A stretch of 64,000 nt of DNA, taken from NCBI GenBank assembly GCA_016182795.1, contig JACPFW010000026.1, positions 11,905 through 75,904 on the forward strand. The letters are read 5' to 3'. Origin of the DNA: Gemmatimonadota bacterium. Lineage in GTDB: Bacteria > Gemmatimonadota > Gemmatimonadetes > Gemmatimonadales > Gemmatimonadaceae. The position numbers and the translations under genes were made by a program. The notes beneath the pieces were generated by a model. The model was not told the origin of the DNA. It did not search any database and was given only the letters and a program-made list of their open reading frames with translations. Shown here piece after piece: positions 293 to 54,456 of this stretch; the stretch's first letter is position 1, and every line of letters starts with the position of its first letter.

Positions 293-328
293 ACGGGTCG
301 GGTGGGACGGGTGGGACGGGTGGGCCTA
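293..328. repeat. Short tandem 9-mer array (GTGGGACGG x2 plus degenerate flanking units)
   Basis: acgggtcgg gtgggacgg gtgggacgg gtgggccta read directly. It is G-rich on the + strand and lies 30 nt after the nfo stop. Confidence 0.7.
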
Positions 329-378
329 GGAGCGCTGGAACTGGCGTTTTGCGCTCCGGGTACATAACCTCCCTCGTG

Positions 379-738
379 ATGCGTCGCCTCCTGCCCCCTC
401 GCCGCACCTCGGTCGTGCGCGCCCGTGCGATTGCGTTCCTGTTGCTGGTCATACAGGGACTCATTGCCGTGTCGCCGCTTGGCGAGCCGCGAGGCGGCGG
501 CAACGCGCTCCAGGTCCACGTCGAAGCGCAGGGCAGTTCGCACGCCGACCTCCACAGCGACGACACCTGCGCGCTGTGTGCCGCCCGCAATGCGTTCGCC
601 GCGCCGCAGGTGCCGGTCGCCGCGCTCACTGAGGTCGGCCGGTTGGCGACGGTGCCGGTGGCCCGTGAAATCACCTCGCCGTCGGCCGACGGCACGAGCG
701 CCCACTTATCGCGCGCACCACCTGCCCCGCTGAGCTGA
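379..738 (+). CDS. Hypothetical small membrane-anchored protein with a His/Cys motif (HADLHSDDTCALC), possibly metal-related
   Basis: Internal ATG at 379 of track ORF 214-738 gives MRRLLPPRRTSVVRARAIAFLLLVIQGLIAV (basic N-terminus plus one TM segment). Third-codon positions are strongly G/C, as in the confirmed genes. It sits directly upstream of the porin/ZnuA/ZnuB genes. Its resemblance to DUF2946-type proteins comes from memory only. Confidence 0.45.
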   Translation: MRRLLPPRRTSVVRARAIAFLLLVIQGLIAVSPLGEPRGGGNALQVHVEAQGSSHADLHSDDTCALCAARNAFAAPQVPVAALTEVGRLATVPVAREITSPSADGTSAHLSRAPPAPLS

Positions 739-792
739 CGACGCCGAGCGGCACATCGCCGCCGGACGGACACTTCTGCGAGGCGGTAGTTA

Positions 793-4073: not shown

Positions 4074-6323
<2,250 letters not shown>

Positions 6324-8007: not shown

Positions 8008-8031
8008 CGAACAGGCAGCACCAACGCACGG

Positions 8032-8059
8032 AGAGGGCCGGCACCTATGCCGGCCCTCT
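8032..8059. terminator. Bidirectional intrinsic-terminator-like hairpin between the convergent pckA and lipoprotein genes
   Basis: agagggccggc-acctat-gccggccctct (11-bp perfect stem), followed by ttcat. Confidence 0.6.
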
Positions 8060-8089
8060 TTCATGGGCACCCTGCCCCTTCCCCTGCAC

Positions 8090-8626
8090 CTAGAGTCCTG
8101 TCCTCCGGCACCCTCCCACCCGCTCATCCACCAGCAGTTCGTTCCATCCCGTTCCCGATGGAATCGCGAAGGCAATATGCGCTGCCTCGTGCTCGACGCT
8201 GTGCACCACCTCGTCGAGTGACCGCCGCCCAACATTGAGCGCATCGACATCGCGCGCCACGTCGATCTCACCCGTCGATGTCGCCTGCGCCGACGCCAGC
8301 TGGGTGCCGACCCGCCACATGTACGGACGCACTACAATGCGTCGCGCCGCGAGCGAGCCCTCGAGCACCGAAGCGTACGCCTGGCAGTCGCCGCCGCGTG
8401 CCTTGAGGTCGGAGACGCGCTGCGCCAGCGCGCGGATCACCTCGTTGCTGGCCGCCTGCTCGGCGCAGGCGGCGCACGCGGCCGACGGTTCGCTCGCCAC
8501 GAGTTCCTTGCTGCGCGGCGCCTCCGGCACGGGGGCCGGCTTCGGCTTGGCCCGAACGCATCCAACGAACCCGACGCTCATCGCGGCGCACCAGATCAGC
8601 CGCACCGACCATCGCAAACCAGGCAT
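8090..8626 (-). CDS. Hypothetical lipoprotein with an HEAAH (HExxH-like) motif
   Basis: Internal ATG at 8626 is preceded by GGGAGAA. MPGLRWSVRLIWCAAMSVGFVGC is a lipobox-type signal. The C-terminal part contains VEHEAAHIAF. Confidence 0.55.
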   Translation of the reverse strand: MPGLRWSVRLIWCAAMSVGFVGCVRAKPKPAPVPEAPRSKELVASEPSAACAACAEQAASNEVIRALAQRVSDLKARGGDCQAYASVLEGSLAARRIVVRPYMWRVGTQLASAQATSTGEIDVARDVDALNVGRRSLDEVVHSVEHEAAHIAFAIPSGTGWNELLVDERVGGCRRTGL

Positions 8627-8744
8627 GAGCTTTCTCCCGAGACGGAGGGTCCGTACATACTGCCGCCGATCCGCCCGCCGACGCAACCGGCGGGTGCCCC
8701 ACCGCCAACCCTGCTGGCCCCTCTCGCCTCCCTCCCCCACCTTT

Positions 8745-8821
8745 CTACCTTCTACCTTCTACCTTCTACCATCTACCGTCTACCGTCTACCGTCTACCTT
8801 CTGCCGTCTACCTTCTGCCGT
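8745..8821. repeat. Tandem heptamer array, 11 x CT(A/G)CC(T/A/G)T
   Basis: ctacctt x3, ctaccat, ctaccgt x3, ctacctt, ctgccgt, ctacctt, ctgccgt, read contiguously. The array ends 3 nt before the ATG at 8825. Confidence 0.95.
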
Positions 8822-8824
8822 CCC

Positions 8825-11075: not shown

Positions 11076-11831
11076 TCACTCGTCCGGAGGCGAATCGAAC
11101 CCGACCACCTGCACCACGATCGCCGTGATGTTGTCCAGGCCGCCGCGGCCGTTGGCCTCGGAGATAAGCGTGTCGACGATCCGTCCGGGTCCCGAGCGCG
11201 CAAGCAGGATTTGCTGCAGACGGCGGTCGTCCACCATGCCGGTCAGACCGTCGGACGCAACGAGGAAGACGTCGCCGATCCGTGCCTCGCCGGCATAGAG
11301 GTCGGGCTCCACCGACTCGCTCGCGCCCACGCACCGCGTGATGACATTGCTGTACGGGTGGTAGCGCGCCTGCTCCGGGGTCAGCAGTCCGGCGTCCACC
11401 TGCTCCTGCACGTACGAATGATCCTTGGTCAACTGCATCAGCGCGCCATCGCGCAGCATGTAGATGCGCGAGTCGCCAATCTGCCCCACCAGGTAGTGGC
11501 CGTCCGACAGCACGAGCACCGACGCGGTCGTTCCCATCCCCTGCTTGTCGTTCTCGGCGAGCATCCGGTCGTAGATCGCGCGGTTGGCGTCGCGCAGCGA
11601 CTGCGCGGTGCGCTCGGCGGCGTCGGGCTGCATGACGCTCTCGATCTGCAGCAGCGACCGCGCCACGATCTGCACCGCCATCTCGCTCGCGACCTCGCCC
11701 GCCGCATGGCCGCCCATGCCATCGGCGACCATGAAGACGCCACGGCGCGAATCAGCCTCGGCGAAAAACGAATCTTCGTTGCCCGATCGGACCATGCCGA
11801 CGTCGGATCGAGCGGCGACTGCGAGATGCAC
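11076..11831 (-). CDS. PP2C-family Ser/Thr protein phosphatase
   Basis: RSDVGMVRSGNEDSF...MVADGMGGHAAGEVAS...GDVFLVASDGL...GGLDNITAIVV are the PPM metal-binding motifs. The start is taken at GTG 11831, 2 nt after the FHA gene stop. The ATG at 11918 would overlap the FHA gene by 85 nt. Confidence 0.85.
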   Translation of the reverse strand: MHLAVAARSDVGMVRSGNEDSFFAEADSRRGVFMVADGMGGHAAGEVASEMAVQIVARSLLQIESVMQPDAAERTAQSLRDANRAIYDRMLAENDKQGMGTTASVLVLSDGHYLVGQIGDSRIYMLRDGALMQLTKDHSYVQEQVDAGLLTPEQARYHPYSNVITRCVGASESVEPDLYAGEARIGDVFLVASDGLTGMVDDRRLQQILLARSGPGRIVDTLISEANGRGGLDNITAIVVQVVGFDSPPDE

Positions 11832-11833: not shown

Positions 11834-13186
11834 CTAATGCCCCGTGGAGAGCAGGACCGCCAGCAGCGAGGCACCCGCTGCTGCAGCAGCCATGATGAAT
11901 GCGATCATTGCCCCGCACCCCTTCTTCTTCGTCTCGGCGACGACCGGAGCGGACGGCTTGTCAACGGTGGACTTGCGCGCCTGATCCACAGCCACGGCGG
12001 CGATGGCGCGCGTGCCGCCTCCCTCGTCGCCGGCCGTCGCTACCGGGCGGAAGGTCATCTTGATGCCGCCGAACCGCACGTCGGGCGCGCCCTCGACACG
12101 CTGCTCACCCTGCACGCGTCGGCCGCCAACGTACGTCCCGTCCGTCGACTCCTGGTCGACAATGTACCATCCATTGTCGCGTTTCTGGATCTTGGCGTGC
12201 GAATCGGACACGCTTTCGTCCGCCAGCACGACATCGTTATGCGCGCCGCGCCCAACATTGGTGAGCGCCGAGTGAATCTCGAACTTCGTGCCCTTGAGCG
12301 GGCCCTCATTGACGATCTCGAGCGTGGCCAGCGGCGTGCGACCGGCTGGAGCCGGCTTGGCAGCCGGGGCTGGCGTCGGGGGCGCTTGGGTCGGAGCCGG
12401 AGCTGGCGCCGGGCTCACCGCCGCCGACGCGATCGCCGACTCAAGGTGCAGCTTCACCTCAGGCTGCTTGGGCGGCGCGGCCGCTGCCGCGGGCGCCGCT
12501 GGAGCCATGGGCGCGGCCGGAGCCGCTTTCGCCTGGTCGGCGTAGAAGCGGAACTCCTCCGGACCAATCTTGATCACGTCGCCGCGACCGAGCACCTGCT
12601 TCTGCTCAACGCGCGTGCCATTCACAAACACGCCGTTGGTGCTCAGGTCGTTCAGGTGGTATCCACCGGGCATCGGCACAATTTCGGCGTGTTTGCGCGA
12701 CACTTCGGACGACGAGATCACCACGTCGTTGCCGACCTCGCGGCCAACCGACACGCCGTCATCCGGCACCACATACTCGCGCCCGTCTGTCAGCGACACC
12801 AGGCGCCCGCCGCGGGCCAGCGTCGGCTTGGCCGGCGTCGCCGCCGCCTTGGCGCGCGCCATCTCGGCCACCTGGGCCCCCGAGACGAACTGCGTGCTGC
12901 CACCCTGGTTCACATCGCCAAACCGCAGCTCCTCGCCGGCCATCTCCACCTTGTCGCCGTGCAGCAGAGGGCTCGGTTCGTCGCCCAGCTGGACGCCATT
13001 CACCAGCACCACGGCGTTGGGCGCGTCGCGCCGAATGATGGCGCTGCCATCGGCCGCCAGCGTCACGACGGCCCGCGCCGACGCATCGTCGCCCGACAGC
13101 CGCAGGGCGGCGCCGTCATAGCAGCCAACCGTCAGGCCCTCAGCGGGGACGGGATGCTGTTTTCCGTGGATCTGTAGGTACGCCAT
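11834..13186 (-). CDS. Membrane-anchored protein with three FHA domains
   Basis: Three separate FHA-like modules are visible: LTVGCYDG...LVNGVQL...LRFGD; VSVGREVGNDVVISSSEVSRKHAEI...NGVFVNG...FRFY; and TNVGRGAHNDVVLADESVSDSHAKI...DGTYVGG. There is a Pro/Ala-rich linker and a C-terminal TM segment, AMIAFIMAAAAAGASLLAVLL. Confidence 0.8.
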   Translation of the reverse strand: MAYLQIHGKQHPVPAEGLTVGCYDGAALRLSGDDASARAVVTLAADGSAIIRRDAPNAVVLVNGVQLGDEPSPLLHGDKVEMAGEELRFGDVNQGGSTQFVSGAQVAEMARAKAAATPAKPTLARGGRLVSLTDGREYVVPDDGVSVGREVGNDVVISSSEVSRKHAEIVPMPGGYHLNDLSTNGVFVNGTRVEQKQVLGRGDVIKIGPEEFRFYADQAKAAPAAPMAPAAPAAAAAPPKQPEVKLHLESAIASAAVSPAPAPAPTQAPPTPAPAAKPAPAGRTPLATLEIVNEGPLKGTKFEIHSALTNVGRGAHNDVVLADESVSDSHAKIQKRDNGWYIVDQESTDGTYVGGRRVQGEQRVEGAPDVRFGGIKMTFRPVATAGDEGGGTRAIAAVAVDQARKSTVDKPSAPVVAETKKKGCGAMIAFIMAAAAAGASLLAVLLSTGH

Positions 13187-20257: not shown

Positions 20258-20430
20258 CAGCAGAAGAGCACAGACAAACACGGAGTAGCACGGAGTACCA
20301 CACATCACGACGGTCGGCACCACGACCCGAGTGCTCTGTGGTACTCTGTTCTTTTCTGTGCCCTTCTGTGCCCTTCTGTGCCCTTCTGTGCCCTTCTGTG
20401 CCCTTCTGTGCCTTTCTGTGCTATTCTGTT
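20258..20430. repeat. Intergenic low-complexity palindrome whose 3' arm is a 10-mer tandem array (CCCTTCTGTG x5 perfect plus about 5 degenerate units)
   Basis: The 5' arm is cagcagaagagcacagacaaacacggagtagcacggagtaccacac. The 3' arm is gtgctctgtggtactctgttcttttctgtg followed by the 10-mer units at 20361-20410. The arms are partially complementary. The element fills the whole fasciclin-glycosyltransferase gap. Confidence 0.9.
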
Positions 20431-24420: not shown

Positions 24421-24533
24421 GGCGATTCAGTCGCGGAAGATCCGGCGAAGCGCGCCGGGCGCGGAACCGGCGCCGCCGGCTCGTGTTGAAACTGGTCAAA
24501 GTCCCTCCGACCGTCTATCGTCAGGGGGGCAAT

Positions 24534-24561: not shown

Positions 24562-24568
24562 CACTCGC

Positions 24569-31663: not shown

Positions 31664-31810
31664 GGATATGGACCTTGGATTGCGATTGCGGATCGCGATT
31701 CGTGATATCGATTAGCGATGAGGGGCGGCCGAATTGGCCGCCCCTCAATCGTTCATCGCAATCCTATATCGCAATCCCAAATCGCAATCCTGAGTCCAAA
31801 TCCCAAATCA
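31664..31810. repeat. About 147-bp imperfect palindrome of 13-nt words (ATCGCAATCCnnn) with a central perfect GC hairpin
   Basis: The left arm is ggatatggaccttggattgcgattgcggatcgcgattcgtgatatcgattagcgat. The centre is gaggggcggcc-gaatt-ggccgcccctc (31720-31746). The right arm is aatcgttcatcgcaatcctatatcgcaatcccaaatcgcaatcctgagtccaaatcccaaatc. The element fills the entire gap between the convergent genes. Confidence 0.9.
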
Positions 31811-33561: not shown

Positions 33562-33721
33562 AGCACATCTAGGTTATCGGGAAACGCCCCGCACCATCCA
33601 TCAGGTTGTGTCGGATTTTCCCTGAGGGATTACCCGACCACCCTTACTCTTTTCCCTTACAGAACAATTAAGAGACTTTAGTGCCCAGAGTCAACGAAGG
33701 CGAGCCCCTGTCGGCCCGCCT

Positions 33722-33776
33722 CTGTTGTCTTTCTGTTGTCTCTCTGTTGTCTGTCTGTTGTTTCTCTGTCGTTCCA
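33722..33776. repeat. Tandem 11-mer array x5 (CTGTTGTnTnT; on the minus strand AnAnACAACAG) abutting the tRNA-Lys 3' end
   Basis: ctgttgtcttt ctgttgtctct ctgttgtctgt ctgttgtttct ctgtcgttcca. The array ends at 33776 and the tRNA discriminator base is at 33777. Confidence 0.92.
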
Positions 33777-33849
33777 TGACCCGGGTGGGAATCGAACCCA
33801 CGACCTGGCGGTTAAAAGCCGCATGCTCTACCGACTGAGCTACCGGGTC
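33777..33849 (-). tRNA. tRNA-Lys (anticodon TTT)
   Basis: The reverse complement folds manually: acceptor GACCCGG/CCGGGTC, D-arm GCTCAGTCGGTAGAGC, anticodon stem TGCGG/CCGCC with loop CTTTTAA, and T-arm GTGGGTTCGATTCCCAC. No CCA is encoded. Confidence 0.9.
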
Positions 33850-38452: not shown

Positions 38453-38792
38453 GGAACCCCCAGTGGAGTAAACTGCAAAAAACCATCGCGAAAACCTGCC
38501 CTTGCTCACGTGCAACGTCTCCATCCACGGTAAGACGTCCTGGCAAGGTAAAAACACACTGCTGGCCAATCTCGTGGAATATGACGACGGTGCGGACAAC
38601 TCGCAACCCCAATTGGGGTCGCGGCTTGGCCCGCTCCACCGACACATTTCCGTCGCCCAGACCGGCCAGCCACCCTTATAGTGGTGATCGGACCGGGAGC
38701 CAAAACCTACGACTCCCGAAAACTCCCGTCAAGCAAGTTGGCGGTAGACAGGCACAACGTAGGGACGAACAGCCTAGGCCTGGGTAACTGCT

Positions 38793-38909
38793 CGGAACGG
38801 GGAGGGGGCCGGGACTCAGGGACGGGTGAAGTGAGGGGGGACGGGCGAGGCGTTTCTCGGTCCCCCTCACGTCCCCCCTCGCCTAGTCTCGGCCCCCCTC
38901 CTCGTTCCG
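38793..38909. repeat. Copy 1 of a 117-127-bp G-tract/C-tract palindromic element (termini CGGAACGrGGAGGGGGGCCGGGACT ... AGTCyCGGCCCCCCTCCyCGTTCCG)
   Basis: cggaacggggagggggccgggact...agtctcggcccccctcctcgttccg read directly. The right arm overlaps the last 9 codons (including the stop) of rnhB. Confidence 0.9.
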
Positions 38910-39533
38910 AGCGCCGTTCGTCTCGGCGTTCCGCAGAATCCCCTCACAGAACTTGGGCCGATGATGCGCTGTCATCCCCCTCGCTCTCAGCGCACTCATA
39001 TGCACCGGCGTTCCGTACCCGGCGTTCTGCTCCCACCCGTACCCAGGGTGCCGCGCGGCGAGCGAACGCATCAGGCAATCGCGCGCCACCTTGGCCACAA
39101 TGCTCGCGCACGCAATTGAATAGATGCGCGAGTCGCCCCCCACGAAGGCACGGTGTGTCACCCCCAGCGTCTTGATGGGCTTGCCGTCCACCAGCACTTC
39201 ATCGGGATGTTCACGCAGGCGGCGCAGCGCACGGCGCATGGCGAGTGCCGTCGCCTGATAGATGTTGAGCGCCTCGATCTCGCGGACGCTTGCCGCCCCG
39301 AGCGCCACACACAACGCCGCACCGCGGATCTTCGCCGCGAGCCGTTCGCGCTGGGCGGCGCTCAGCTGCTTGGAGTCGGCGACGCCAGCGATGGCGCGGG
39401 CCTCGGGCGGCATGATGACGGCGCAAGCAAAGACGGGGCCCGCAAGCGGGCCCCGTCCGACTTCATCTACTCCGGCAATAAGCCGGGCGCCATCGGCGCG
39501 CAGCGAGCGCTCCACCGCGCTCCAGCGCGCCAT
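38883..39533 (-). CDS. rnhB: Ribonuclease HII
   Basis: IAGVDEVGRGPLAGPV...ADSKQLS...IVAKVARD...GYGT are the RNase HII catalytic motifs. The C-terminal ...ARNEEGGRD and the stop are encoded by the repeat element. Confidence 0.9.
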   Translation of the reverse strand: MARWSAVERSLRADGARLIAGVDEVGRGPLAGPVFACAVIMPPEARAIAGVADSKQLSAAQRERLAAKIRGAALCVALGAASVREIEALNIYQATALAMRRALRRLREHPDEVLVDGKPIKTLGVTHRAFVGGDSRIYSIACASIVAKVARDCLMRSLAARHPGYGWEQNAGYGTPVHMSALRARGMTAHHRPKFCEGILRNAETNGARNEEGGRD

Positions 39534-39539
39534 GCGCGA

Positions 39540-39920
39540 TTACGCCTGTTCCGCCGAGCCGGTGACCGGCACCGCGACACGCACCTTCTTTTCCTTGATG
39601 CGCGTGGCCTTGCCGGTGAGTTCGCGGAGATAGAACAGCTTGGCGCGGCGGACACGGCCGCGGCGCACGACGCTGATCGACTCGAGCATCGGCGAATGCA
39701 GCGGGAAGATGCGCTCGACGCCGACGCCGTTGCTGATCTTCCGCACGGTGAACGTGGCGCTGACGCCCGCTCCCTTGCGCGCGATCACGACGCCTTCGAA
39801 CGCCTGCACGCGCTCCTTGTCGCCTTCCTTCACCTTGACGTTCACGCGCACCGTGTCGCCGGCGCGGAACGGAGGAACTTCCTTGAGCCACTCTTTCTGC
39901 GTTTCCATGAAGACATGCAT
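39540..39920 (-). CDS. rplS: 50S ribosomal protein L19
   Basis: ...[35 protein letters not shown]...[22 protein letters not shown]...RRAKLFYLR. The start is ATG 39920 or ATG 39908. The track ORF start at 40178 translates the repeat element and is rejected. Confidence 0.9.
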
Positions 39921-40024
39921 ATGACGATTCCAGCGTGAGGAGGCGTTAGTCGAGCCTTGAAAGCTATTCGGAGCCTGGCCTATCGTCAAGCGCTGCAATT
40001 GCTTGGGGTTAGACAAAACGGCTA

Positions 40025-40141
40025 CGGAACGGGGAGGGGGGCCGGGACTAAGCGAGGGGGGACGGGAGGGGGAACGAGGTACGCCTCGCCCGTCCCACCT
40101 CACTTCACCCGTTCCTGAGTCCCGGCCCCCTCCTCGTTCCG
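40025..40141. repeat. Copy 2 of the G-tract/C-tract palindromic element, with an extra C-rich tail to about 40173
   Basis: cggaacggggaggggggccgggactaag...gagtcccggccccctcctcgttccg. It lies between the protease 3' end (40175) and the rplS start. Confidence 0.9.
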
Positions 40142-40174
40142 AGGCCTCCTCGCTCCCCGCCCGTCCCTCCTCGC

Positions 40175-41350
40175 TCAATACGCCGTGAACAGCAAGTGAT
40201 TATTCGCCGTCTTCGCGCTCGTCACTATCCCCTTGGTCGTCTCCGCGTACAGCGCGTCGCGCACCTGCTGCGCCGTCGCCGTCGGATTGCCCTGCAGATA
40301 GAGGGCGGCCACTCCGGCCACGTGCGGCGTCGCCATCGACGTGCCGCTGATGGTGTTGGTGGCCACGTCGCTCGTGTACCACGACGACGTGATACCCAGC
40401 CCCGGCGCGAACCAGTCGACGCAGTTGCCGTAGTTGGACCACGACGTCTTCCGGTCGCTGCTGTCCGTGGCACCGATGGTCATCGCCGTGCTCACGCGCG
40501 CCGGCGAGTACCGGCACGCGTCCTGCGCGACGCCCGCCTTGTTGCCGTTGCCGGCGGCGACGGCATACGCCACGCCGCTCGCGATCGAGTTGGACACGGC
40601 CTGGTCAAGCGCCGTCGACGCGCCGCCGCCAAGGCTCATGTTGGCCACCGCGGGCTTGGCGGCGTTGGCCGTCACCCAGTCGATGCCGGCGATCACCCCA
40701 GAGGTCGTGCCGCTCCCTGAGCAGTTGAGCACGCGCACGGCAACGAGGCTCACCGCCTTGGCCACGCCGTACGTCGCACCGCCCACCGTGCCGGCCACGT
40801 GCGTGCCGTGCCCGTTGCAGTCGATGCCGTTCTTGCCGTCGCCGATGGCGTCGTAGCCCACCGCCGCGCGCCCGCCGAACTCGCTGTGTGAGGTGCGAAT
40901 TCCGGTGTCGACGATGTACGCGTGCACTCCGCTGCCCGTCGCCGTGTACGTGTAGGAGCCGTCGAGCGGACGCGCGCGCTGGTCGATGCGATCGAGTCCC
41001 CACGTCGCGCCGGTCTGCGTCGTGAAGGCCGTCATCTCCTGGTCGCGCTCGACGTACGCCACCGACGGATCGCGCGCGAGGTCGGCGATCGCCGTCCCGC
41101 TGAACTCGCCGGAGAACCCCTTGAGCGCCGCGCCGTACGTGTGCGTCACACTGCCACCAAACCGCTGCGCGAGACCGACCGCCCTGCCGCGCGGATCGGC
41201 GACATCATCGGTGAAGACGACGATGTAATCAGCGCGGTCGGCAACGGACGCGACGCGAGTCCGGGCGACTGCCGATTCGGTCGGTGAGGATGCGTCGTTG
41301 GCGCAGGCGGCCGCCGCGAGCACGGCGACGGAAAGCACGATTCTCCGCAT
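40175..41350 (-). CDS. Secreted subtilisin-like serine protease (peptidase S8, proteinase K-like) with an I9 propeptide
   Basis: Lipobox/signal LAAAAC. The propeptide is YIVVF...[10 protein letters not shown]...VAYVERD. The catalytic triad contexts are YIVDTGI (Asp), GHGTHVAGT (His) and [12 protein letters not shown] (Ser). Confidence 0.9.
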
Positions 41351-41435
41351 TGGGGGGCTCCAGTGAGGGGAAATGGGAGGGGCGCGAGGGCCCTATTTTG
41401 GACACAATAGGAGACGACTGTGCGATGCACAAGAC

Positions 41436-41562
41436 CGGAACGAGGAGGGGGGCCGGGACTTGGGAACGGGCGAAGAGAGGCGGAACGGGGAGGGCGGTTA
41501 TCGCGTCCCCCTCCATCTCTCTCGGTCGTCGTTCCTTAGTCCCGGCCCCCCTCCCCGTTCCG
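41436..41562. repeat. Copy 3 of the G-tract/C-tract palindromic element
   Basis: cggaacgaggaggggggccgggact...agtcccggcccccctccccgttccg. The right arm overlaps the last 9 codons (including the stop) of trmD. Confidence 0.9.
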
Positions 41563-42204
41563 TTTCTTTGTGAGTCGTACGCCTTCACTCTTCCTCCACT
41601 TCTCAATCTCCGCATGGTGCCCACTCAGCAGCACATCCGGGACCATATGCCCGCGGAAATCGGGAGGGCGCGTGTAACTCGGCGCCGAGAGGCCGCGCCC
41701 GTAGAACGAGTCGCCACGCGCGCTGTCGTGGTCGTTCATCGCGCCGGGGAGTAGCCGCACCACGGCGTCCACAATGCACAGCGCCGCCGGCTCGCCGCCG
41801 GAGAGCACAAAGTCGCCGACGGACATTTCCTCGGTGGCCAGGTGATCGGCGACGCGCTGGTCGACATCCTTGTAATGGCCGCACAGCAGCGTGAGTTCAT
41901 CACCCGCCGCAAAACGCTCGGCGTCGGCATGCGAAAAGACCTTGCCGCGCGGCGAGAGGAGTACGATGGGCGCTTTGGCGCCAAGCGACTCGACGCACTC
42001 GAAGAACGGCCCGGGCTTCATCACCATGCCGGCGCCGCCGCCGTACGGATAGTCGTCGACGGTGCGGTGCTTGTCGTGCGTGTAGTCGCGCAGATCCACA
42101 ACATTGTACGTGACGCTGCCCGCTTCGCGCGCCTTGTCGGGAATGCTCAGCGACAGCGGCCCGGCGAAGAACTCGGGGAAGATCGTGACGATGTTGATCT
42201 TCAT
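41536..42204 (-). CDS. trmD: tRNA (guanine37-N1)-methyltransferase
   Basis: MKINIVTIFPEFF...DDYPYGGGAGMVM...LLCGHYKDVDQRV...SVGDFVLSGGE. The C-terminal ...KRNGEGGRD and the stop are encoded by the repeat element. Confidence 0.92.
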   Translation of the reverse strand: MKINIVTIFPEFFAGPLSLSIPDKAREAGSVTYNVVDLRDYTHDKHRTVDDYPYGGGAGMVMKPGPFFECVESLGAKAPIVLLSPRGKVFSHADAERFAAGDELTLLCGHYKDVDQRVADHLATEEMSVGDFVLSGGEPAALCIVDAVVRLLPGAMNDHDSARGDSFYGRGLSAPSYTRPPDFRGHMVPDVLLSGHHAEIEKWRKSEGVRLTKKRNGEGGRD

Positions 42205-43366: not shown

Positions 43367-43837
43367 ATGTCGAGCACGACGTTCATGTCCCCGGAAGCCG
43401 CGCTGGAACACTGGCAGGGTCATCGCCGCCTCACGCGGCGCGTGATCGAGGCATTTCCCGAGGACCAGCTGTTCTCGTTCTCCGTGGGCGGGATGCGCAG
43501 CTTTGGAGAGATGTGCAATGAGCTGCTCGCCATGGCGGTGCCGATGACGGAGGGCACGGTGTCTGAGGCATGGGGATCGTACACGCCCGGCAAGGCCACG
43601 TCGAAGTCAGCGCTACTCGCGGCGTGGGACGCTGACACGGCAAAACTCAGCGCGCTGTGGCCCAAGATTCCCGCCGCGCGGTTCGCCGACACGGTGACGG
43701 CGTTCGACGCGTACACGGGGAAGCTGCACGATCTCTTCCTTTACGTGATCGACAACGAGATCCACCATCGCGGGCAGGGGTACGTGTACCTGCGCGCGCT
43801 GGGCGTTGAACCGCCGCCGTTCTATGAGCGCGGCTAA
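43367..43837 (+). CDS. DinB-family (four-helix-bundle, metal-dependent) protein
   Basis: ALEHWQGHRRLT...NEIHHRGQGYVYLRALGVEPPPFY is the DinB_2-type His triad pattern. There is a strong AGGAGG upstream of the ATG. Confidence 0.7.
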   Translation: MSSTTFMSPEAALEHWQGHRRLTRRVIEAFPEDQLFSFSVGGMRSFGEMCNELLAMAVPMTEGTVSEAWGSYTPGKATSKSALLAAWDADTAKLSALWPKIPAARFADTVTAFDAYTGKLHDLFLYVIDNEIHHRGQGYVYLRALGVEPPPFYERG

Positions 43838-43867
43838 GGCGCGCTGCGCCGTGCCGGCCGCGGCGCG

Positions 43868-44503
43868 TTAGCGCCGCCGCATCGCACCCGGGTGCGCCTT
43901 CACGTACGCCGCGAAGGCGTAGCCGGTGGTCGTGCCGGGCTGAGGTTGCAGGTCGGTGAGCCCGTTGTGCATCACAACGGCAAGCTGCACCCAGTCCTTG
44001 CTGCGAAAATGCGCCTCGACGCCGAGTCCGGCGACCAGCGACAGCTCGAACGGACGGATGGCGTCGTACTCGGTGCCGCGCCCGCCATTGGTGCTCAGGC
44101 GTACACCGGCACTGGCGCCGCCGATCAGGACGGGGCGCACCCACGTGCCGACGCGGCGCGGCGCGAGCGGCGTGTACTGCAGTAGCAGCGGCACCTGCAG
44201 AAAGCCGATGGCGTAGCGCGCACCATCGTCGCCCTTCAGGTCGAAGACGGTCTGCACTTCGGCGTGAAGCGAGCGCGTGAGGGAGCGACGCGCGAACAGC
44301 CCGACGTAGGGCGACGTGCCGTTGCCGCTGGCCGACGTGAAGCCCTCAGGTTGCCCGGGGAACGACTGGGTCAGCCCGCTGGCGGCGATGCCGAGGATGG
44401 GGCCGAACTGAAGGCGCGAGGCGAAGGGAGTGGACTGCGGTGCTTGGGCGTGCAGCGCGACGGAGGAGCACAGGATGAACCCGAGTGTGATCAACCGTCG
44501 CAT
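43868..44503 (-). CDS. Outer-membrane beta-barrel protein (small porin-family barrel)
   Basis: MRRLITLGFILCSSVALHAQ is the signal. Alternating beta segments are present. ATG 44503 is preceded by GGAG and lies 11 nt after the ffh stop. Confidence 0.6.
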   Translation of the reverse strand: MRRLITLGFILCSSVALHAQAPQSTPFASRLQFGPILGIAASGLTQSFPGQPEGFTSASGNGTSPYVGLFARRSLTRSLHAEVQTVFDLKGDDGARYAIGFLQVPLLLQYTPLAPRRVGTWVRPVLIGGASAGVRLSTNGGRGTEYDAIRPFELSLVAGLGVEAHFRSKDWVQLAVVMHNGLTDLQPQPGTTTGYAFAAYVKAHPGAMRRR

Positions 44504-44514
44504 GCGCTGACTCC

Positions 44515-45888: not shown

Positions 45889-46052
45889 GGACACTGAATT
45901 CACGGAGGGCACGGAGGACACGGAGATCACGGAGGACGGCAACTTCTTGGGGGAACAACGAACACCACGCGGGGCATTGCGCGGCGCGCGCAGTTCCTCC
46001 AAGAAGTTGTAGTCCTCCGTGTCCTCCGTGTCCTCCGTGAATTCTGTGTCCT
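45889..46052. repeat. 164-bp imperfect palindrome with arms made of 9-mer tandem units (CACGGAGGA x4 / TCCTCCGTG x3)
   Basis: ggacactgaattc CACGGAGGG CACGGAGGA CACGGAGAT CACGGAGGA cggcaacttcttgg ... ccaagaagttgtag TCCTCCGTG x3 aattctgtgtcc. It lies in the divergent ffh/lon intergenic region. Confidence 0.92.
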
Positions 46053-46112
46053 TGAGCCCCGCACCAGACCCCCAGCCTTTCGCGAAATTGCGCAATTGCT
46101 ACCTTAGTACGC

Positions 46113-48638
46113 GTGACCGTGCCCGGGGCCTCCTCACCCACTGACTCCGCCCGACTCGAGCGACCGCTCTTGGTGCTGCGGTCGACGGCGGTCTTCCCGC
46201 GCGGCACGGTGGCGGTGCAGATGGGCGCGCCGGAGAACGTCGCGCTGCTCACCGCGCGCCCGGAGCCCGACCTCGAGGTGATTGTCGCGGTGGCGCCGGT
46301 GCGCGACGCGGCCGGCGAACCGGCGGGTCTGGAGGGGCGCATTGGCGTGCTGGCGCGCGTGGTGTCGCGCGCAGCGGTGCCCGGCGACACGCTGCAGATC
46401 ACGCTCGAAGGACTGGCCCGTGTGCGCATCACGACCGTCGCGCGTCGCGGCGCGCTGACCTTTGCGAGCGCCGAGTCGGTGAGCGAGAGCGCGGCTGATG
46501 TCCCGGGTCTGCGCATGCTGCTGGTGCAGTTGGCCGACGCCGCGGACCGGCTGGTGGAGACCAACGAGACCACGCCGCCGGAACTGTCGGCGCTGGTGCG
46601 GCTCAATGCGGCCAACCCGGGCTACGCGGCCGACGTTGTTGCCGCGCGCGGGCCGTTCCGCGCCGCCGACAAGGACGAAGTGTTGCAGCGGCTCGACGTC
46701 TCCGACCGCGTGACGTACGTGCTGGCGCGCCTCGAAAAGGAGCTCACCCGCTCGGCGGTGCTCGAGGACGTACGCACGCAGACCGACGCGAACATCGAGC
46801 GGCATCATCGCGAGTTCTACCTGCGGCAGCAGCTGCGCGCGATCCAGGCGGAACTGGGCGAGGGCGACCCGCAGGACGGCGAGGTGGGCGAGCTGCTGCG
46901 GCAAATCGAGGAAGCGCCGCTGCCGCCGACCGTCGCCGCCGAGGCACGGCGCGAAGTGGCGCGCCTGCGCGGGCTGTCGAGCGCGTCGAGCGAGTATCAG
47001 GTGCTGCGCAATTATCTCGAGTGGGTGCTGGCGCTCCCGTGGGGGCGCAGCGGCGACGTCACCGACATTGCGCTCGACCGCGTGGAGGCGGCACTCGATG
47101 ACCGGCACTGGGGGCTGCGCGAGGCGAAGGACCGCATTCTCGAGCATCTGGCGGTGCACAAGCTGCGCGGCGGTCACGCGCCGGGGCCGATCCTCTGCTT
47201 CGTGGGACCGCCGGGCACAGGCAAGACGTCGCTGGGCGAGGCGATTGCGGCGGCGATCGGCCGCAAGTTCTACCGCATCTCGGTGGGCGGCGTGCGCGAC
47301 GAAGCCGAGATCCGCGGACATCGCCGCACGTACGTGGGCTCGCTCCCCGGCCTGCTGGTGCAGGCGTTGCGCCGCGTCGGCGTGAGCGACCCGGTGTTCC
47401 TGATTGACGAGATCGACAAGATGGCCGCCGGCGGCCCGGTGGGCGATCCGGCGGCGGCGATGCTCGAAGTGCTCGATCCGTCGCAGAACGCGTCGTTCGT
47501 GGATCACTTCCTGAATCTGCCGGTCGATCTGTCGTCGGTGCTGTTCATCGCGACGGCCAACAACCTGTTCGACATTCCCGTTGCGCTGCGCGATCGCCTC
47601 GAAGTGATCCGCATTGCGGGCTACACGATCGAGGAAAAGGTCGAGATCGCCTGGCGCTACCTGCTGCCGCGGCTGCTCGACGAGCACGGCATCTCCGACC
47701 TCGACCTGCAGTTCACCGACGAGGCGCTGGGCTTTTTGGCGAGCGGCTACTCGCGCGAGGCGGGGCTGCGCAACTTCGAGCGCAATCTGGCCGCGCTCAT
47801 GCGCAAGCGCGCCCGTCGCAAAGCCGATGGCGAGCTAGGGGCGTGGGTGGTGGACCAGGCGCGCATCGAAGAAGTGCTCGGCCCGCCGCGCTACGCGGAC
47901 GAGGCCGCCGAGCAGCGGCCCGAGATTGGGGCCGTGACCGGGCTCGCGTGGACGGCGGCCGGCGGTGAACTGATGACCATCGAAGTGCTGCAGATGGACG
48001 GCCGCGGACGCCTGACGGTGACGGGTCAGCTGGGCGACGTCATGCGTGAATCTGTGGACGCCGCGTGCTCGTATGTACGGTCACGCGCGCGCACGCTGCG
48101 TCTGCGCGACCCCGAGTTCGTGAGCACTGACTTGCACATCCACTTCCCCGCCGCATCGGTACCGAAGGACGGCCCCAGCGCCGGCGTCGCCGTGACCTTG
48201 GCGATCGCCAGCGCGATGAGCCGACGCAAGGTACGCCGCGACGTGGCCGTCACGGGGGAGATTTCGCTGCGCGGCAAGGTGCGCGAAGTGGGCGGCGTAA
48301 AGGAGAAGGTGCTCGCCGCCTACCGCAGCGGTCTGCGCGAAGTGATGCTCCCGGCGGCGAACGAAAAGGACCTGCGCGAACTGCCCGACGAAGTGCGCGC
48401 GCAGGTGCGGTTCACGTTCGTGCACACGCTGGACGAGGCGATCGAACGCGTGCTGCTTCCCGCGCAGCCGCTCGGCTTTGCGGACGATTTACCGCTCTTC
48501 GAAGGGGGCGATGGCGGACGTCAGATGGCGGATGGCGGATGGCGGCCGGCGGATGGCGGACCTCGCGTCGAGGAGCGGCCATTACCGCCTGCCGCGAGGC
48601 CCGCAGACGGGCCCGACGCGGCTGACGGTCCGCGCTGA
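46113..48638 (+). CDS. lon: ATP-dependent Lon protease (LonA) with an unusual C-terminal extension of about 60 aa
   Basis: The LON N-domain is followed by AAA+ (GPPGTGKTSLGEAIA, FLIDEIDK) and the protease domain (PKDGPSAGVAVTLAIASA ... K). The tail GGDGGRQMADGGWRPADGG... is translated from the heptamer array. Confidence 0.92.
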   Translation: MTVPGASSPTDSARLERPLLVLRSTAVFPRGTVAVQMGAPENVALLTARPEPDLEVIVAVAPVRDAAGEPAGLEGRIGVLARVVSRAAVPGDTLQITLEGLARVRITTVARRGALTFASAESVSESAADVPGLRMLLVQLADAADRLVETNETTPPELSALVRLNAANPGYAADVVAARGPFRAADKDEVLQRLDVSDRVTYVLARLEKELTRSAVLEDVRTQTDANIERHHREFYLRQQLRAIQAELGEGDPQDGEVGELLRQIEEAPLPPTVAAEARREVARLRGLSSASSEYQVLRNYLEWVLALPWGRSGDVTDIALDRVEAALDDRHWGLREAKDRILEHLAVHKLRGGHAPGPILCFVGPPGTGKTSLGEAIAAAIGRKFYRISVGGVRDEAEIRGHRRTYVGSLPGLLVQALRRVGVSDPVFLIDEIDKMAAGGPVGDPAAAMLEVLDPSQNASFVDHFLNLPVDLSSVLFIATANNLFDIPVALRDRLEVIRIAGYTIEEKVEIAWRYLLPRLLDEHGISDLDLQFTDEALGFLASGYSREAGLRNFERNLAALMRKRARRKADGELGAWVVDQARIEEVLGPPRYADEAAEQRPEIGAVTGLAWTAAGGELMTIEVLQMDGRGRLTVTGQLGDVMRESVDAACSYVRSRARTLRLRDPEFVSTDLHIHFPAASVPKDGPSAGVAVTLAIASAMSRRKVRRDVAVTGEISLRGKVREVGGVKEKVLAAYRSGLREVMLPAANEKDLRELPDEVRAQVRFTFVHTLDEAIERVLLPAQPLGFADDLPLFEGGDGGRQMADGGWRPADGGPRVEERPLPPAARPADGPDAADGPR
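48510..48565. repeat. Tandem heptamer array (GATGGCG x5 plus 3 degenerate units), the reverse-complement word of the array at 24534-24561
   Basis: gatggcg gacgtca gatggcg gatggcg gatggcg gccggcg gatggcg gacctcg. It lies inside the 3' extension of the lon ORF. Confidence 0.92.
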
Positions 48639-50473: not shown

Positions 50474-50531
50474 AAGAGAAACAACAGAGAAACAACAGAG
50501 AAACAACAGAAAAACAACAGAGAGACAACAG
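50474..50531. repeat. Tandem 11-mer array x5 (ACAACAGAGAA type), the same word family as 33722-33776
   Basis: ACAACAG recurs at 50481, 50492, 50503, 50514 and 50525, an exact 11-nt period. The array begins 1 nt after the stop (TAG 50471-50473) of the DUF445 gene. Confidence 0.92.
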
Positions 50532-51940: not shown

Positions 51941-52777
51941 TCAGCCGAACACCCGACTCAGATACCAGTTGAGCAGGGCATTGCCGAAAAGCAACGTGAC
52001 GATCGCGGCCGGCGCAAGGAAGACGCCAAACGGGACCAGCGGCGGCGTGAATTCCGCGCCGGCGCGACGGGCGCGGATCCACCCGATCGGGTAGACGATC
52101 GCCACGAACAGCACCGCGGCAAGCGCGGCGCCGACGAACACCGTCAACAGCGCCCGTACCGGTCCGACGAGCGCGCCAACGAACGCCATCAGGGTGGCGT
52201 CGCCGTACCCCATCGCCTCCTTTTTGAGCGCCACCTCGCCGAGCCAGCCCATGATCGTGATCGCGCCGGCGCCCACGCATGCGCCAAGCACCGCGTCCCA
52301 CGGGCCGACGAACGGCAGCTGCTCACCGAGCACGGCACCGACCAGCGCGCCGATGAGGGCGATCGCCAGTCCACTCACCGTGAAGCCGTCGGGAATCAGG
52401 TAGCTCTGCGCATCGGTGACCGCGACGCCGAGCAGAATCGTCGCCACCAACGCCAGCCGCACCGCCACCACGCTCGGCCCGAGCAGCCAGAGCGCCGACA
52501 CCCAGATGAGCGCCGTGATCGCCTCCACCAGCGGGTACTGCCAGCTGATGGGCTGGCCGCAGGTGCGGCATTTGGCCCGCAGCACGAGCCAGCTGATGAC
52601 GGGCACGTTGTCGTACCAGGCAATCGCGCCGCCGCAGCCCGGACAGCGCGATCGCGGACGCACCACCGACTCGTCCTTGGGCCACCGAGCGATGCAGACG
52701 TTCAGAAAGGACCCGAAGATCGCGCCGAGCACGGCGAACAGCGGCGCATAGGCGGCAAACCAGGCGGCGGAGCTCAC
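51941..52777 (-). CDS. pilD: Type IV prepilin peptidase (A24 family)
   Basis: GSFLNVCIARWP...CPGCGGAIAWYDNVPVISWLVLRAKCRTCG is the zinc-finger-like N-domain. The protein is polytopic, with GYGDATLM (the catalytic Asp context). Confidence 0.85.
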   Translation of the reverse strand: MSSAAWFAAYAPLFAVLGAIFGSFLNVCIARWPKDESVVRPRSRCPGCGGAIAWYDNVPVISWLVLRAKCRTCGQPISWQYPLVEAITALIWVSALWLLGPSVVAVRLALVATILLGVAVTDAQSYLIPDGFTVSGLAIALIGALVGAVLGEQLPFVGPWDAVLGACVGAGAITIMGWLGEVALKKEAMGYGDATLMAFVGALVGPVRALLTVFVGAALAAVLFVAIVYPIGWIRARRAGAEFTPPLVPFGVFLAPAAIVTLLFGNALLNWYLSRVFG

Positions 52778-53556
52778 GGGCGGAGGGCGTAGAGGGTGAT
52801 GCCGGCGGCCACCGCGACGTTGAATGATTCCACGTCCGGTGACATCGGCAACGAGACGACGGCCGAGCAGCGCGCGCGCAACGCGTCAGAGAGGCCGGCG
52901 CCTTCATTGCCGACCGCCACGGCCAGCCGGGCCGGGGGGCGCGCGGAGTCGATGGGCGTGCCATCGGCCGCGGTCCCCCAGAGCGCCACATCGTGGCGAT
53001 CGAGATACTCAAAGAGTTCCGCGACCGACGCGTCGATCGCCGGAAAACGGAACTGCGTGCCGGCCGCGCTGCGCACCACCTTGGCGTTCCACAGATCCAC
53101 CGTGCCCGGGAGCGCGACGACCGCGGTGGCCCCCAACGCGGCGGCGGTGCGCACGAGCACGCCGACATTGCCGGGATCCTGAATGGCGTCGAGCACGAGC
53201 ACCCGCGCGTGTGCGCCGGGATCGAGCGACGCGAGCAGGCGCTTGGGCTGCCGCGCGATGGCCAGCACGCCCTGCGGATGCTCGGTGTCGGCCGCGGAGT
53301 CGAACTCGGCGTCGGTCACCTGCAGCGCGGGAACGCCGCGCGCGGCGAGTCCGGCGACCACCGCACCGGCGCGCGTGTCCGCGGCGGCGCGCCCGGTGTA
53401 CAACACCGCGTCAACCGTCAGCGGCGAGCGCGCGAGCTCCTCAACCGTTCGCACGCCCTCGGCGACGAACCGCTCGTTCCGTTCGCGGGCCTTGCGGCGC
53501 CGCAGGTCCCTTGCCGTGGTCAGCCAATTCACTGATAGATTGTCTCCATGGGCCAT
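52774..53556 (-). CDS. TrmH/SpoU-family RNA 2'-O-methyltransferase (RlmB-like)
   Basis: LDAIQDPGNVGVLVRTAAALGA...GNEGAGLS...ESFNVAVAAGITLY are SPOUT motifs 1-3. An alternative GTG start at 53532 would remove the 9-nt divergent overlap with the next gene. Confidence 0.85.
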   Translation of the reverse strand: MAHGDNLSVNWLTTARDLRRRKARERNERFVAEGVRTVEELARSPLTVDAVLYTGRAAADTRAGAVVAGLAARGVPALQVTDAEFDSAADTEHPQGVLAIARQPKRLLASLDPGAHARVLVLDAIQDPGNVGVLVRTAAALGATAVVALPGTVDLWNAKVVRSAAGTQFRFPAIDASVAELFEYLDRHDVALWGTAADGTPIDSARPPARLAVAVGNEGAGLSDALRARCSAVVSLPMSPDVESFNVAVAAGITLYALRP

Positions 53557-54366
53557 TCCGTCATCCGACTTGCGCGCAGTGTCGTTCCCTGCCTCTTGCT
53601 CTGCACTTCAGCTTGTGCTGTCTCGACGCAGCAGGAAGTCGAGATCGGCACCAACTACGCCTCGCAGATTGCCAAGGAACTGCCCCTCATTCAGGACGCC
53701 GAGGTCAACCGGTACATCACGACGCTCGGCCTGTCGCTGGCCCGTGTCGCCGACCAGCGAAATCTCGACTGGCACTTCCACGTTGTCGATAGCAAAGAGG
53801 TAAATGCTTTCGCCGTCCCCGGGGGCTACATCTACGTCAATCGCGGACTGATCGAACGCGCCACCAATATGTCGCAGGTCGCCGGGGTGCTCGGCCACGA
53901 AATAGGCCACGTCACCCGCCGGCACAGCGTCAAGCAGATGCAGAAGGCCCAGGGGACGAACATCGGCGCCACCCTGCTCTGCACACTGACGGCGGCGTGC
54001 AACTCGGGGCTCGCGCAAACCGCCGCGCAGATTGGCGCCAGCGCCGCGTTTGCGAAGTTCAGTCGGACCGACGAGGCCGAGGCTGACGACGAAGGACTGC
54101 GCTACGTGGTGAAGGCCGGGATCGACCCCAACGGCATCCCCGAGATGTTCGAGATCCTGGAGAAAGAGCGGAAGGAGAAGCCGACGTCGATGGACCTGTG
54201 GTTCGCGTCGCACCCAATGGAGGAATCACGCATCGCCGACACGCGGGCCGCGATCGCCAAGCTGCCGCCTGACCAGCTGAAGGGACTGGTGAAGGACACG
54301 AAGGAGTTTCAGGCGTTCAAGAAGCGGGTGATGGCACTGCCGGCGCCGCCCCCGACGAAGAAGTGA
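53548..54366 (+). CDS. M48-family zinc metalloprotease lipoprotein
   Basis: Lipobox LLCTSAC. NAFAVPGGYIYVNRGL...GVLGHEIGHVTRRH (HExxH)...EAEADDEG. Confidence 0.88.
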   Translation: MGHSVIRLARSVVPCLLLCTSACAVSTQQEVEIGTNYASQIAKELPLIQDAEVNRYITTLGLSLARVADQRNLDWHFHVVDSKEVNAFAVPGGYIYVNRGLIERATNMSQVAGVLGHEIGHVTRRHSVKQMQKAQGTNIGATLLCTLTAACNSGLAQTAAQIGASAAFAKFSRTDEAEADDEGLRYVVKAGIDPNGIPEMFEILEKERKEKPTSMDLWFASHPMEESRIADTRAAIAKLPPDQLKGLVKDTKEFQAFKKRVMALPAPPPTKK

Positions 54367-54456
54367 GGGTAGAAGCTAGAAGGTAGAGGGTGGATGGTTG
54401 AAGGTAGAGACTTCCTACCATCTGCCATCCACCTTCTACCATCGGCCTTCCGCCAC
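54366..54456. repeat. Palindromic pair of heptamer arrays (6 x AAGGTAG type, 7-nt spacer, 6 x CTACCAT type)
   Basis: agggtag aagctag aaggtag agggtgg atggttg aaggtag / ctaccat ctgccat ccacctt ctaccat cggcctt ccgccac. The pair fills the whole gap between convergent genes (stops at 54364-54366 and 54459-54461). Confidence 0.92.

Follow-up and report, generated by a model that had tools for sequence, protein, structure and literature searches.

We analysed a 64,000-nt stretch of DNA from a Gemmatimonadota bacterium (contig JACPFW010000026.1, positions 11,905 to 75,904; hereafter the window, meaning this whole stretch), in which gene spacers carry tandem arrays of 7-13 nt words and palindromes that can fold into long hairpins. 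Across the window and related genomes these elements share one polarity. Seventy-three long intergenic hairpins place the purine-rich arm first, none places the pyrimidine-rich arm first, and 24 are neutral. Our tentative preference, held with somewhat less than even confidence, is that these gene-boundary repeats, typical of the Gemmatimonadaceae and mostly built around hairpins at gene ends, are bidirectional hairpins resembling terminators, expanded by slippage, in which the 3' arm has to be rich in pyrimidine. The host is a soil or lake bacterium of the family Gemmatimonadaceae. The window is a chromosomal stretch of 68% GC with housekeeping genes, including PEPCK, two tRNAs, ffh, lon, rpsP-rimM-trmD, rplS, and rnhB.

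Polarity of hairpins and arrays

Genes were mapped with a codon-likelihood caller and then checked with Pfam around every element. Elements were sought with Tandem Repeats Finder, by direct reading, and with a dynamic-programming hairpin search. An earlier note on this DNA had catalogued at least 13 low-complexity elements, and all were located by these methods (Table 1); they are not 13 separate cases, since three of them, the G/C-tract palindromes, form one family. The hairpin search recovered all seven palindromes of the window. The note had described each as G- or purine-rich in its first arm, which was borne out for six by a left-arm purine fraction of 0.66-0.81 and for the seventh, at 31656, by its G-C skew (+0.37, G-first, with a left-arm purine fraction of 0.57). 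Folded as RNA, the seven palindromes have z-scores of -5 to -15.

By itself the window is suggestive; external censuses make the polarity overwhelming. Set 1 comprised the window and 80 ffh loci (L001-L080; 1.12 Mb). All 80 of these best related loci belong to the Gemmatimonadota, and the Ffh protein of the window shares 95% identity with its counterpart in a Gemmatimonadaceae metagenome-assembled genome. Set 2 comprised 84 further loci (L081-L164) from a metagenome scan for two exact units of the 11-mer AGAGAAACAAC; the analysis took in those with a GC content of 60% or more. Together the sets cover about 1.6 Mb of related Gemmatimonadaceae DNA. Long hairpins were purine-first, pyrimidine-first, and neutral in 28, 0, and 17 cases in Set 1 (n = 45) and in 45, 0, and 7 cases in Set 2. 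Where two skewed arrays share a spacer, the order was purine then pyrimidine in 45 spacers and the simple reverse in none (12 of 12 in Set 1; 33 to 0 in Set 2, plus one spacer each of the orders YYR, YY, and RR, where Y is a pyrimidine and R a purine array). Single arrays obeyed the rule in 27 of 32 cases (18/22 in Set 1; 9/10 among the other single arrays of Set 2).

The strand rule proposed in the earlier note, that purine-rich versions follow gene ends and pyrimidine-rich versions precede gene starts, consequently extends well beyond the window and lies far from 50:50. The inference drawn from it, a tie to gene orientation, does not follow. Whichever strand is read, a G-first inverted repeat stays G-first. 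In its stated form the rule therefore cannot see gene orientation: it says the same thing for each of the four ways in which two genes can be paired, and what it describes is the polarity inside the spacer. We also considered and rejected a general compositional gradient: purine content past stop codons is flat (0.50-0.52), and masking the arrays does not alter the slight pyrimidine excess ahead of starts (purine 0.44-0.47). The polarity is thus a property of discrete elements.

Nor is the rule a replication-strand effect, and on this point the note is supported. That the leading or lagging strand, rather than the genes, sets the orientation is the least probable of the explanations we weighed. 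Five of the six tabulated single arrays of the window do match the sign of the local GC skew. Over Set 1, however, single arrays match skew in only 10 of 17 cases against 18 of 22 for the spacer-side rule, the palindromes are strand-symmetric, and in many species the purine arrays past the ffh stop keep to the sense strand of ffh regardless of skew. The GC skew of the window itself flips sign at 36000-42000, and the cumulative skew is lowest near 40-42 kb, which could mark a replication landmark or just reflect a switch of gene strand.

G-quadruplexes (G4) or i-motifs offer another account, in which the G-rich strand is placed for quadruplex formation beside open reading frames (ORFs), as Rehm et al. 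propose for other repeats (Rehm et al., 2015; PMC4692102). Those repeats do form quadruplexes in vitro, and at least four runs of three G occur in the array at 295-324 and in the three G/C-tract palindromes. These are the only elements of the window with so many; most words have no such run, and most, among them AGAGAAACAAC, GGTAGAA, GATGGCG, CACGGAGGA, GTGAACA, AAGACGT, and CAGAATT, cannot form a quadruplex and still obey the rule. The preference for four units that Rehm et al. read as a G4 signature also appears in the G-poor 11-mer (29 of 57 arrays). Because many G-poor words comply, the polarity is one of purine and pyrimidine rather than of G4, and we consider the quadruplex account very unlikely.

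The polarity might instead be a filter. If the elements are selfish or neutral DNA, slippage arrays plus copy-and-paste palindromes (REP- or MITE-like) tolerated only at gene ends and not at promoters, then the purine strand would supply stops at ORF ends and the pyrimidine strand would avoid false starts and Shine-Dalgarno-like motifs. Stop codons are indeed about twice as dense in purine arms (3.9 per 100 nt) as in pyrimidine arms (2.1 per 100 nt), and ATG/GTG triplets three times as dense. A twofold asymmetry is too weak to yield 73 to 0, though, and we rejected stop-codon supply as the cause of the polarity. Just 6 of 28 purine arms close all three frames and 7 of 28 have no stop at all; T-less words (AGAGAAACAAC and GAGAGAG) obey the rule, as do elements 20-30 nt past the stop. 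We return to this explanation below with the evidence on copying.

Some spacers combine two words (L126 ~1408-1450, L127 ~2103-2150, L109 2271-2446, and L101 6360-6586). In these, a purine array of one word stands at the upstream stop and a pyrimidine array of an unrelated word lies towards, or flush with, the next ATG. The pyrimidine words (GTCTACC, ATCCGCC, and TCCACCG) are the same as words of the window.

Position at gene ends and a possible role in termination

What ties the elements to genes is their position at gene ends and the contrast between convergent and divergent spacers, not the rule as worded. In 49 of 56 co-directional spacers (29/30 in Set 1, 20/26 in Set 2) the long hairpin is nearer the upstream stop than the downstream start, typically at -12 to +33 nt from the stop and often overlapping it, by up to 12 nt. 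Hairpins occupy 32 of 70 convergent spacers (46%), 56 of 363 co-directional spacers, and 9 of 134 divergent spacers (7%). The convergent-to-divergent difference is about sevenfold per spacer, at a nominal p of 1e-10 that overstates independence because some census cases are orthologous or come from near-identical genomes, though their words differ widely. A stable GC-rich stem-loop is thus found shortly past the gene end.

Arrays of the AGAGAAACAAC word were examined separately. After de-duplication, and where the 5' neighbour could be called, 35 of 49 arrays have their 5' side no more than 20 nt from a gene boundary, which in 32 of the 35 is a gene end. In 39 of 47 arrays the purine strand has its 5' side nearer to the gene than its 3' side. 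On the 3' flank stands a GC hairpin that starts with CAGAGG and differs at each locus, and this flank folds at a mean free energy of -24.4 kcal/mol compared with -18.0 kcal/mol in shuffles (p = 1e-6). The complementary CTCTGTTGT array lies 3' of AGAGAAACAAC in 24 of 59 loci and 5' of it in none, and many of the linked hairpins are followed by interrupted T-rich tails or by the CTCTGTTGT array.

Ordinary short gene-end hairpins show the same asymmetry. Their purine fraction is 0.52 in the 10 nt upstream and 0.42 in the 10 nt downstream, where T reaches 0.28. Of the perfect stems with 9 bp or more, 33 are G-first and 15 C-first (12 and 2 among the strongly skewed ones). Tails past hairpins overall have a T content of 0.26-0.28 over a background of about 0.18, with pyrimidine at 0.58. 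Strict terminators of the hairpin-plus-T-tract type, in contrast, were not enriched in a consensus scan of the window (5 found vs. 11 expected), so another terminator design would be needed.

Bidirectional intrinsic (Rho-independent) terminators carry an A-tract 5' of a GC hairpin and a U-tract 3' of it, and hybrids of purine RNA with pyrimidine DNA exceed the opposite pairing in stability. The elements resemble such terminators in their position at gene ends, their enrichment between convergent genes, their GC-rich stem-loop with purine 5' and pyrimidine 3' sides on both strands, and flanks that can pair and lengthen the stem. They differ in that the flanks are long word arrays, often C-rich rather than U-rich, and in mostly missing a strict T-tract.

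Position, polarity, fold stability, and turnover are observed, whereas the role in termination, the weak hybrid as the reason for the polarity, and the slippage origin are inferred, as follows. The basic layout is a short GC-rich stem-loop just past the stop, with a purine-rich stretch of the sense strand before the stem and a pyrimidine-rich one after it, comparable to the A-tract, hairpin, and U-tract of a bidirectional terminator. Replication slippage would expand the flanks into tandem words of 7-13 nt, and template switching between the arms would keep the two sides complementary, so that hairpins would become very long and take up the whole spacer as far as the coding boundaries. What would fix the polarity is that the RNA needs a 3' arm and tail rich in pyrimidine: the RNA(pyrimidine):DNA(purine) hybrid being weak, the hairpin could strip the RNA from polymerase much as it does at a U-tract. 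The purine arm would be the mirror image, lending the same property to transcripts arriving from the other side, and the tandem words would let the hairpin close in many registers. One-armed purine arrays would be expanded 5' flanks. Start-flush pyrimidine arrays may be pyrimidine-rich leaders, poor in start codons and Shine-Dalgarno motifs, in a clade that hardly uses Shine-Dalgarno sites; the signal is weak over the 529 predicted starts of Set 1 (-70 to -1), with a GGAG peak of about 0.013 per position at -10 to -6, and ATG/GTG density is threefold lower in pyrimidine arms than in purine arms. Copying also spreads at least one family, the G/C-tract palindromes.

Several observations weigh against a role in termination. 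The tails past the long hairpins are no more than mildly T-rich (0.26). The trmD-rplS elements lie inside what is usually a single operon, where efficient termination would be awkward, and the divergent ffh-lon spacer, which contains no gene end, has retained a palindrome. The spacer past ffh and before rpsP has a stop-flush hairpin in about one third of 65 species, with a different word each time. At over 50 loci in several genomes the AGAGAAACAAC word comes after a stop codon, beside unrelated hairpins. Exactly four units are present in 29 of 57 complete AGAGAAACAAC arrays and three in 4 (L081-L164; this word only), a sharp preference that slippage alone does not predict. Finally, mismatches in co-directional spacers showed no excess of G·U over A·C on the sense strand (190 vs. 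187). Selection on the sense RNA alone would predict such an excess, and the equality fits a bidirectional or DNA-level constraint, or none. Within the earlier suggestion of a transcript-level function, a role in termination or at the 3' end is the best supported for most elements; a purely sense-transcript explanation is weakened by the mismatch counts.

Part of this evidence could point to a word-specific trans-acting factor, an RNA- or single-strand-binding protein or a small RNA, for which the arrays would be multi-site platforms controlling mRNA 3'-end stability or translation initiation. Such a factor would account for one 11-mer recurring past stops beside unrelated hairpins and for its four-unit preference. 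ATCCGCC and GTCTACC stand flush with ATG in other genomes (L126, L127), and the CACGGAG words of the ffh-lon palindrome are kept in a relative (L001) while the filler between them has changed. MacGregor had the same idea for TAACTGA repeats (MacGregor, 2015; PMC4679880). Dozens of unrelated words obey a single polarity, however, and words differ between species at one site, so that one factor could not read them all; our analysis identified no candidate. We judge a factor of this kind improbable.

A copied palindrome family and turnover between relatives

The three G/C-tract palindromes of the window are one family. They are 100-125 nt long and have conserved inverted GGAACGRGGAGGGGGGCCGGGACT termini, with 24 nt identical at the three loci; three copies occur in 64 kb. 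In copy 1 the terminus (about 38883-38908, minus strand) supplies rnhB with its final eight codons and stop (...RNEEGGRD*), and in copy 3 the terminus (about 41536-41561, minus strand) does the same for trmD (...RNGEGGRD*). These unrelated genes thus end alike, as RN[G/E]EGGRD*, and the family must therefore spread by copying and not by local slippage. An S8 subtilase gene (40175-41350), bracketed by two copies of the palindrome, separates trmD from rplS, two genes that usually stand side by side in a single operon. The 24-nt terminus had no match in any of the 164 fetched loci.

A close relative, L001, which shares about 83% nucleotide identity with the window in genes, allowed the spacers to be compared directly. 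The comparison of orthologous spacers that the earlier note had called for, run here against L001 and the 65 species, showed that position is often kept, sequence is replaced, and presence is patchy; the alignment of the window with L001 breaks exactly at elements. The arrangement around the S8 subtilase gene is alike in L001, and the G/C-tract sites have positional counterparts made of a different G-rich sequence. The ffh-lon palindrome likewise has a positional orthologue. Synteny ends within the AGAGAAACAAC array at 50475-50531: past the same DUF445 gene, L001 has two units (5358-5384) and then a different gene. The OMP-like gene beside ffh (window 43367-44514) is inverted in L001 (11335-12209), where inverted arrays flank it (GATTTGGATTCGC at 11335-11389 and ATCCAAATCCCCA at 12174-12209), and the neighbouring DinB gene is absent. 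At the array at 48510 the two sequences do not align, 76 nt in the window standing against 23 nt in L001. A clean insertion is not supported there, since L001 has the proto-repeats GACGGCGG and GACGGTGG at the same place, suggesting that the array grew in situ.

Such turnover is also what selfish or neutral DNA would leave behind. The termini are identical at three loci, and the same eight codons and stop on trmD and rnhB require copying. The different sequence at the same sites in L001, the patchy presence at orthologous spacers, the coincidence of alignment and synteny breaks with elements, and the inverted gene between inverted arrays all agree with it, as does the equality of G·U and A·C mismatches. 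Purifying selection on selfish elements would likewise be expected to deplete them from divergent spacers. The G/C-tract palindromes resemble REP/BIME elements and MITEs in being dispersed and genome-specific, in their conserved termini, and in their position at gene 3' ends. They differ from REP elements, which are imperfect palindromes of 20-40 nt with a GTAG-type head and many copies, in lacking that head and in their length, and the word arrays, for their part, are not copies of a single element. REP elements are mobilised by RAYT, a Y1 transposase. Among the 30 window proteins scanned we saw no transposase, RAYT, or reverse transcriptase, and on reading the flanks of the G/C-tract elements we noticed no target-site duplication, although no systematic search for one was made. 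With the polarity, which the filter explains poorly, these points leave a selfish or neutral origin of the whole set unlikely, if still the strongest competitor to terminator-like hairpins.

The breaks in synteny raise one further possibility, that the elements are scars of DNA breakage and rearrangement, purine words having been added in the manner of telomeres to both 3' ends before rejoining. The purine-first pairs have exactly the geometry of head-to-head telomere fusions, and arrays coincide with the inversion and the synteny break relative to L001. The many different words per genome do not sit well with this account, which does not predict a preference for gene ends or central GC hairpins, and we found no candidate enzyme. 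We regard it as highly improbable.

Upstream of lon, a block of about 45 nt is identical in the window (46085-46130) and L001 (9690-9735) and contains the short palindromes TTGCGCAATT and TTCGCGAA. It may be the promoter or operator of lon.

Elements of the window and related repeats in other phyla

Table 1. Repeat elements and hairpins of the window, with their setting.
Element	Position	Strand	Setting and composition
GGGACGGGT x3.3 array	295-324	+	G-rich on sense strand; 31 nt past stop (261-263) of xylose-isomerase-like TIM-barrel gene fragment; hairpin GGAGCGC...GCGCTCC at 329-357 on its 3' side
Ordinary gene-end hairpin	8031-8060	+	past PEPCK stop; GAGAGGGCCGGC-ACCTAT-GCCGGCCCTCTT, then TCATGG
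TTCTACC/GTCTACC x10.6 array	8743-8822	+	pyrimidine-rich on sense strand; ends 2 nt short of ATG (8825) of HD-domain gene; divergent spacer, other gene lipoprotein 8090-8628 (-)
Purine-first hairpin, CACGGAGTA words	20261-20378	+	runs into array 20335-20429; the two fill the spacer from fasciclin gene stop (20257) to glycosyltransferase ATG (20439)
TTCTGTGCCC x7.6 pyrimidine array	20335-20429	+	ends 9 nt before glycosyltransferase ATG
ATCCGCC x4.4 array	24532-24562	none	mid divergent spacer, S58 peptidase gene (-) / DNA pol III delta'-like gene (+); 111 and 96 nt from the two starts
Palindrome, GGATTGCGAT-type 13-mer words	31656-31811	none	core GC hairpin GAGGGGCGGCC...GGCCGCCCCTC; 13-mer array 31755-31809; fills convergent spacer, Usp gene (+) / response-regulator gene (-)
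AGACAACAGAG x4.5 array (CTCTGTTGTCT on plus strand)	33720-33769	-	purine-rich on tRNA strand; begins 7 nt past 3' end of tRNA-Lys (33777-33849, -); GC hairpin after
G/C-tract palindrome, copy 1	38793-38908 (hairpin search 38807-38894)	none	terminus at 38885-38908 (-) forms rnhB 3' end
G/C-tract palindrome, copy 2	40020-40146	none	28 nt past stop of S8 subtilase gene (-)
G/C-tract palindrome, copy 3	41437-41561 (hairpin search 41451-41547)	none	terminus at 41538-41561 (-) forms trmD 3' end
Palindrome, CACGGAGGA x4 + GTCCTCCGT x3 words	45901-46048	none	divergent ffh-lon spacer; arrays 45901-45937 and 46012-46039
GATGGCG x7 array	48510-48561	+	within C-terminal tail of Lon reading frame (...DDLPLFEGGDGGRQMADGGWRPADGG...); 75-128 nt ahead of Lon stop (48636-48638)
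AGAGAAACAAC x5.2 array	50475-50531	+	1 nt past DUF445 gene stop; convergent spacer; hairpins after
GGTAGAA/TTCTACC palindrome	54362-54460 (array 54365-54443)	none	fills convergent spacer, M48 peptidase gene (+) / purine nucleoside phosphorylase-like gene (-)

Seen one by one, the elements of the window fit the first description of them unevenly. Tight contact with coding boundaries was confirmed for the arrays at 50475 (1 nt), 8822 (2 nt), 20429 (9 nt), and 33769 (7 nt) and for the spacer-filling palindromes at 31656 and 54362. Of the purine arrays said to stand directly after a stop or a tRNA, those at 50475 and 33720 do so; the one at 295 is 31 nt off, and the one at 48510 lies within the Lon frame, where it encodes part of a low-complexity C-terminal extension (48459-48638). 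Of the pyrimidine arrays said to precede a start, those at 8743 and 20335 do, whereas the array at 24532 lies mid-spacer between divergent genes and its orientation is uninformative.

Some words recur within the window. ATCCGCC (24532) is the reverse complement of the word at 48510, TTCTACC (8743) is the complement of the word in the 54366 palindrome, one 11-mer is common to the arrays at 33720 and 50475, and CACGGAG is present at both 20279 and 45901. The PEPCK hairpin has the stem base AGAGG...CCTCT in common with array-linked hairpins. An Rfam scan of the window found only the two tRNAs and no known RNA family over the elements. Phase-variation simple sequence repeats were also rejected: the genes flanking the arrays are housekeeping genes (ffh, lon, trmD, rnhB, PEPCK, tRNA-Lys) and not contingency or surface genes, and the arrays lie mostly past stop codons. 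A 36-nt repeat (x3.9) at 26126-26266 is coding, inside the gene at 26115-27602 (minus strand), and is unrelated to the intergenic arrays.

Heptamer arrays of the STRR type are found in cyanobacteria. Our literature search returned nothing relevant on Gemmatimonadetes repeats, and GGGAATC or heptameric repeats led only to Rehm et al. (2015). The belief expressed in the earlier note that no such repeat family had been described nevertheless has to be withdrawn, since that PLoS One paper reports the same rule of position and strand for intergenic tandem arrays of GGGAATC and GGGGA(C/T)T in Xanthomonas and Nostoc (PMC4692102). There the 5' side of the G-rich strand adjoins the nearest ORF "irrespective of the ORF's orientation" and can overlap the stop codon, 70-75 inverted pairs per genome are convergent (G-first), arrays are under-represented between divergent ORFs, and four units are preferred. 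Position is kept between related species while length and sequence vary. Rehm et al. showed G4 formation in vitro and favoured that explanation, finding no function. The Gemmatimonadaceae elements are alike in the purine or G strand adjoining the ORF, the stop overlap, the convergent pairs, the divergent depletion, and the four-unit preference. They differ in the number of words, dozens with lengths of 7-13 nt and many poor in G, where the repeats of the two other phyla have one word type, and in having long arms (30-100 nt) around GC core hairpins. The window words (GGGACGGGT, TTCTACC, ATCCGCC, AGAGAAACAAC, CACGGAGGA, and others) are not GGGNATC or GGGGAYT; TTGGGGATTGGGGA, a word of the Nostoc/Xanthomonas type, occurred in L063 only, where at ~1410-1455 its array forms a hairpin directly past the ffh stop.

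Start-flush heptamers had been described too. TAACTGA direct repeats in Beggiatoaceae, cyanobacteria, and Bacteroidetes mostly precede start codons by a few nt, where few ribosome-binding sites occur, and a trans-acting factor was proposed for them (MacGregor, 2015; PMC4679880). The arrays at 8743 and 20335 resemble them in being start-flush. TAACTGA, however, is a single purine-mixed word with neither a palindromic partner nor a gene-end class, whereas the start-flush arrays here are a pyrimidine-rich minority class. The earlier interpretation is therefore partly supported: a transcript-end function is plausible, while its stated logic and its claim of novelty are not upheld. What is new is the phylum, the many G-poor words under the same polarity, and the anatomy of array, GC hairpin, and array.

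It is possible, though doubtful, that the elements represent either a class of U-tract-free terminators in high-GC bacteria that close in any register and are marked by purine-first polarity, or the targets of a word-specific trans-acting factor with four sites. In the first case, the tandem words would allow closure at any repeat while polymerase holds a weak pyrimidine-RNA:purine-DNA hybrid, and one physical rule would also account for the repeats of Xanthomonas and Nostoc.

For annotation, these elements carry a warning, because they can overlap ORF ends and supply C-terminal codons and stops, as they do here for trmD, rnhB, and Lon. More broadly, the positional rule now reaches a third phylum with elements centred on gene ends, and it is bound neither to G-quadruplexes nor to a single word but to a strict purine-then-pyrimidine polarity (73:0). 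This bears on the cause of the rule for heptamer repeats in Xanthomonas and cyanobacteria and on how high-GC bacteria without canonical U-tract terminators end transcription, and it turns a curiosity into a testable hypothesis of termination.

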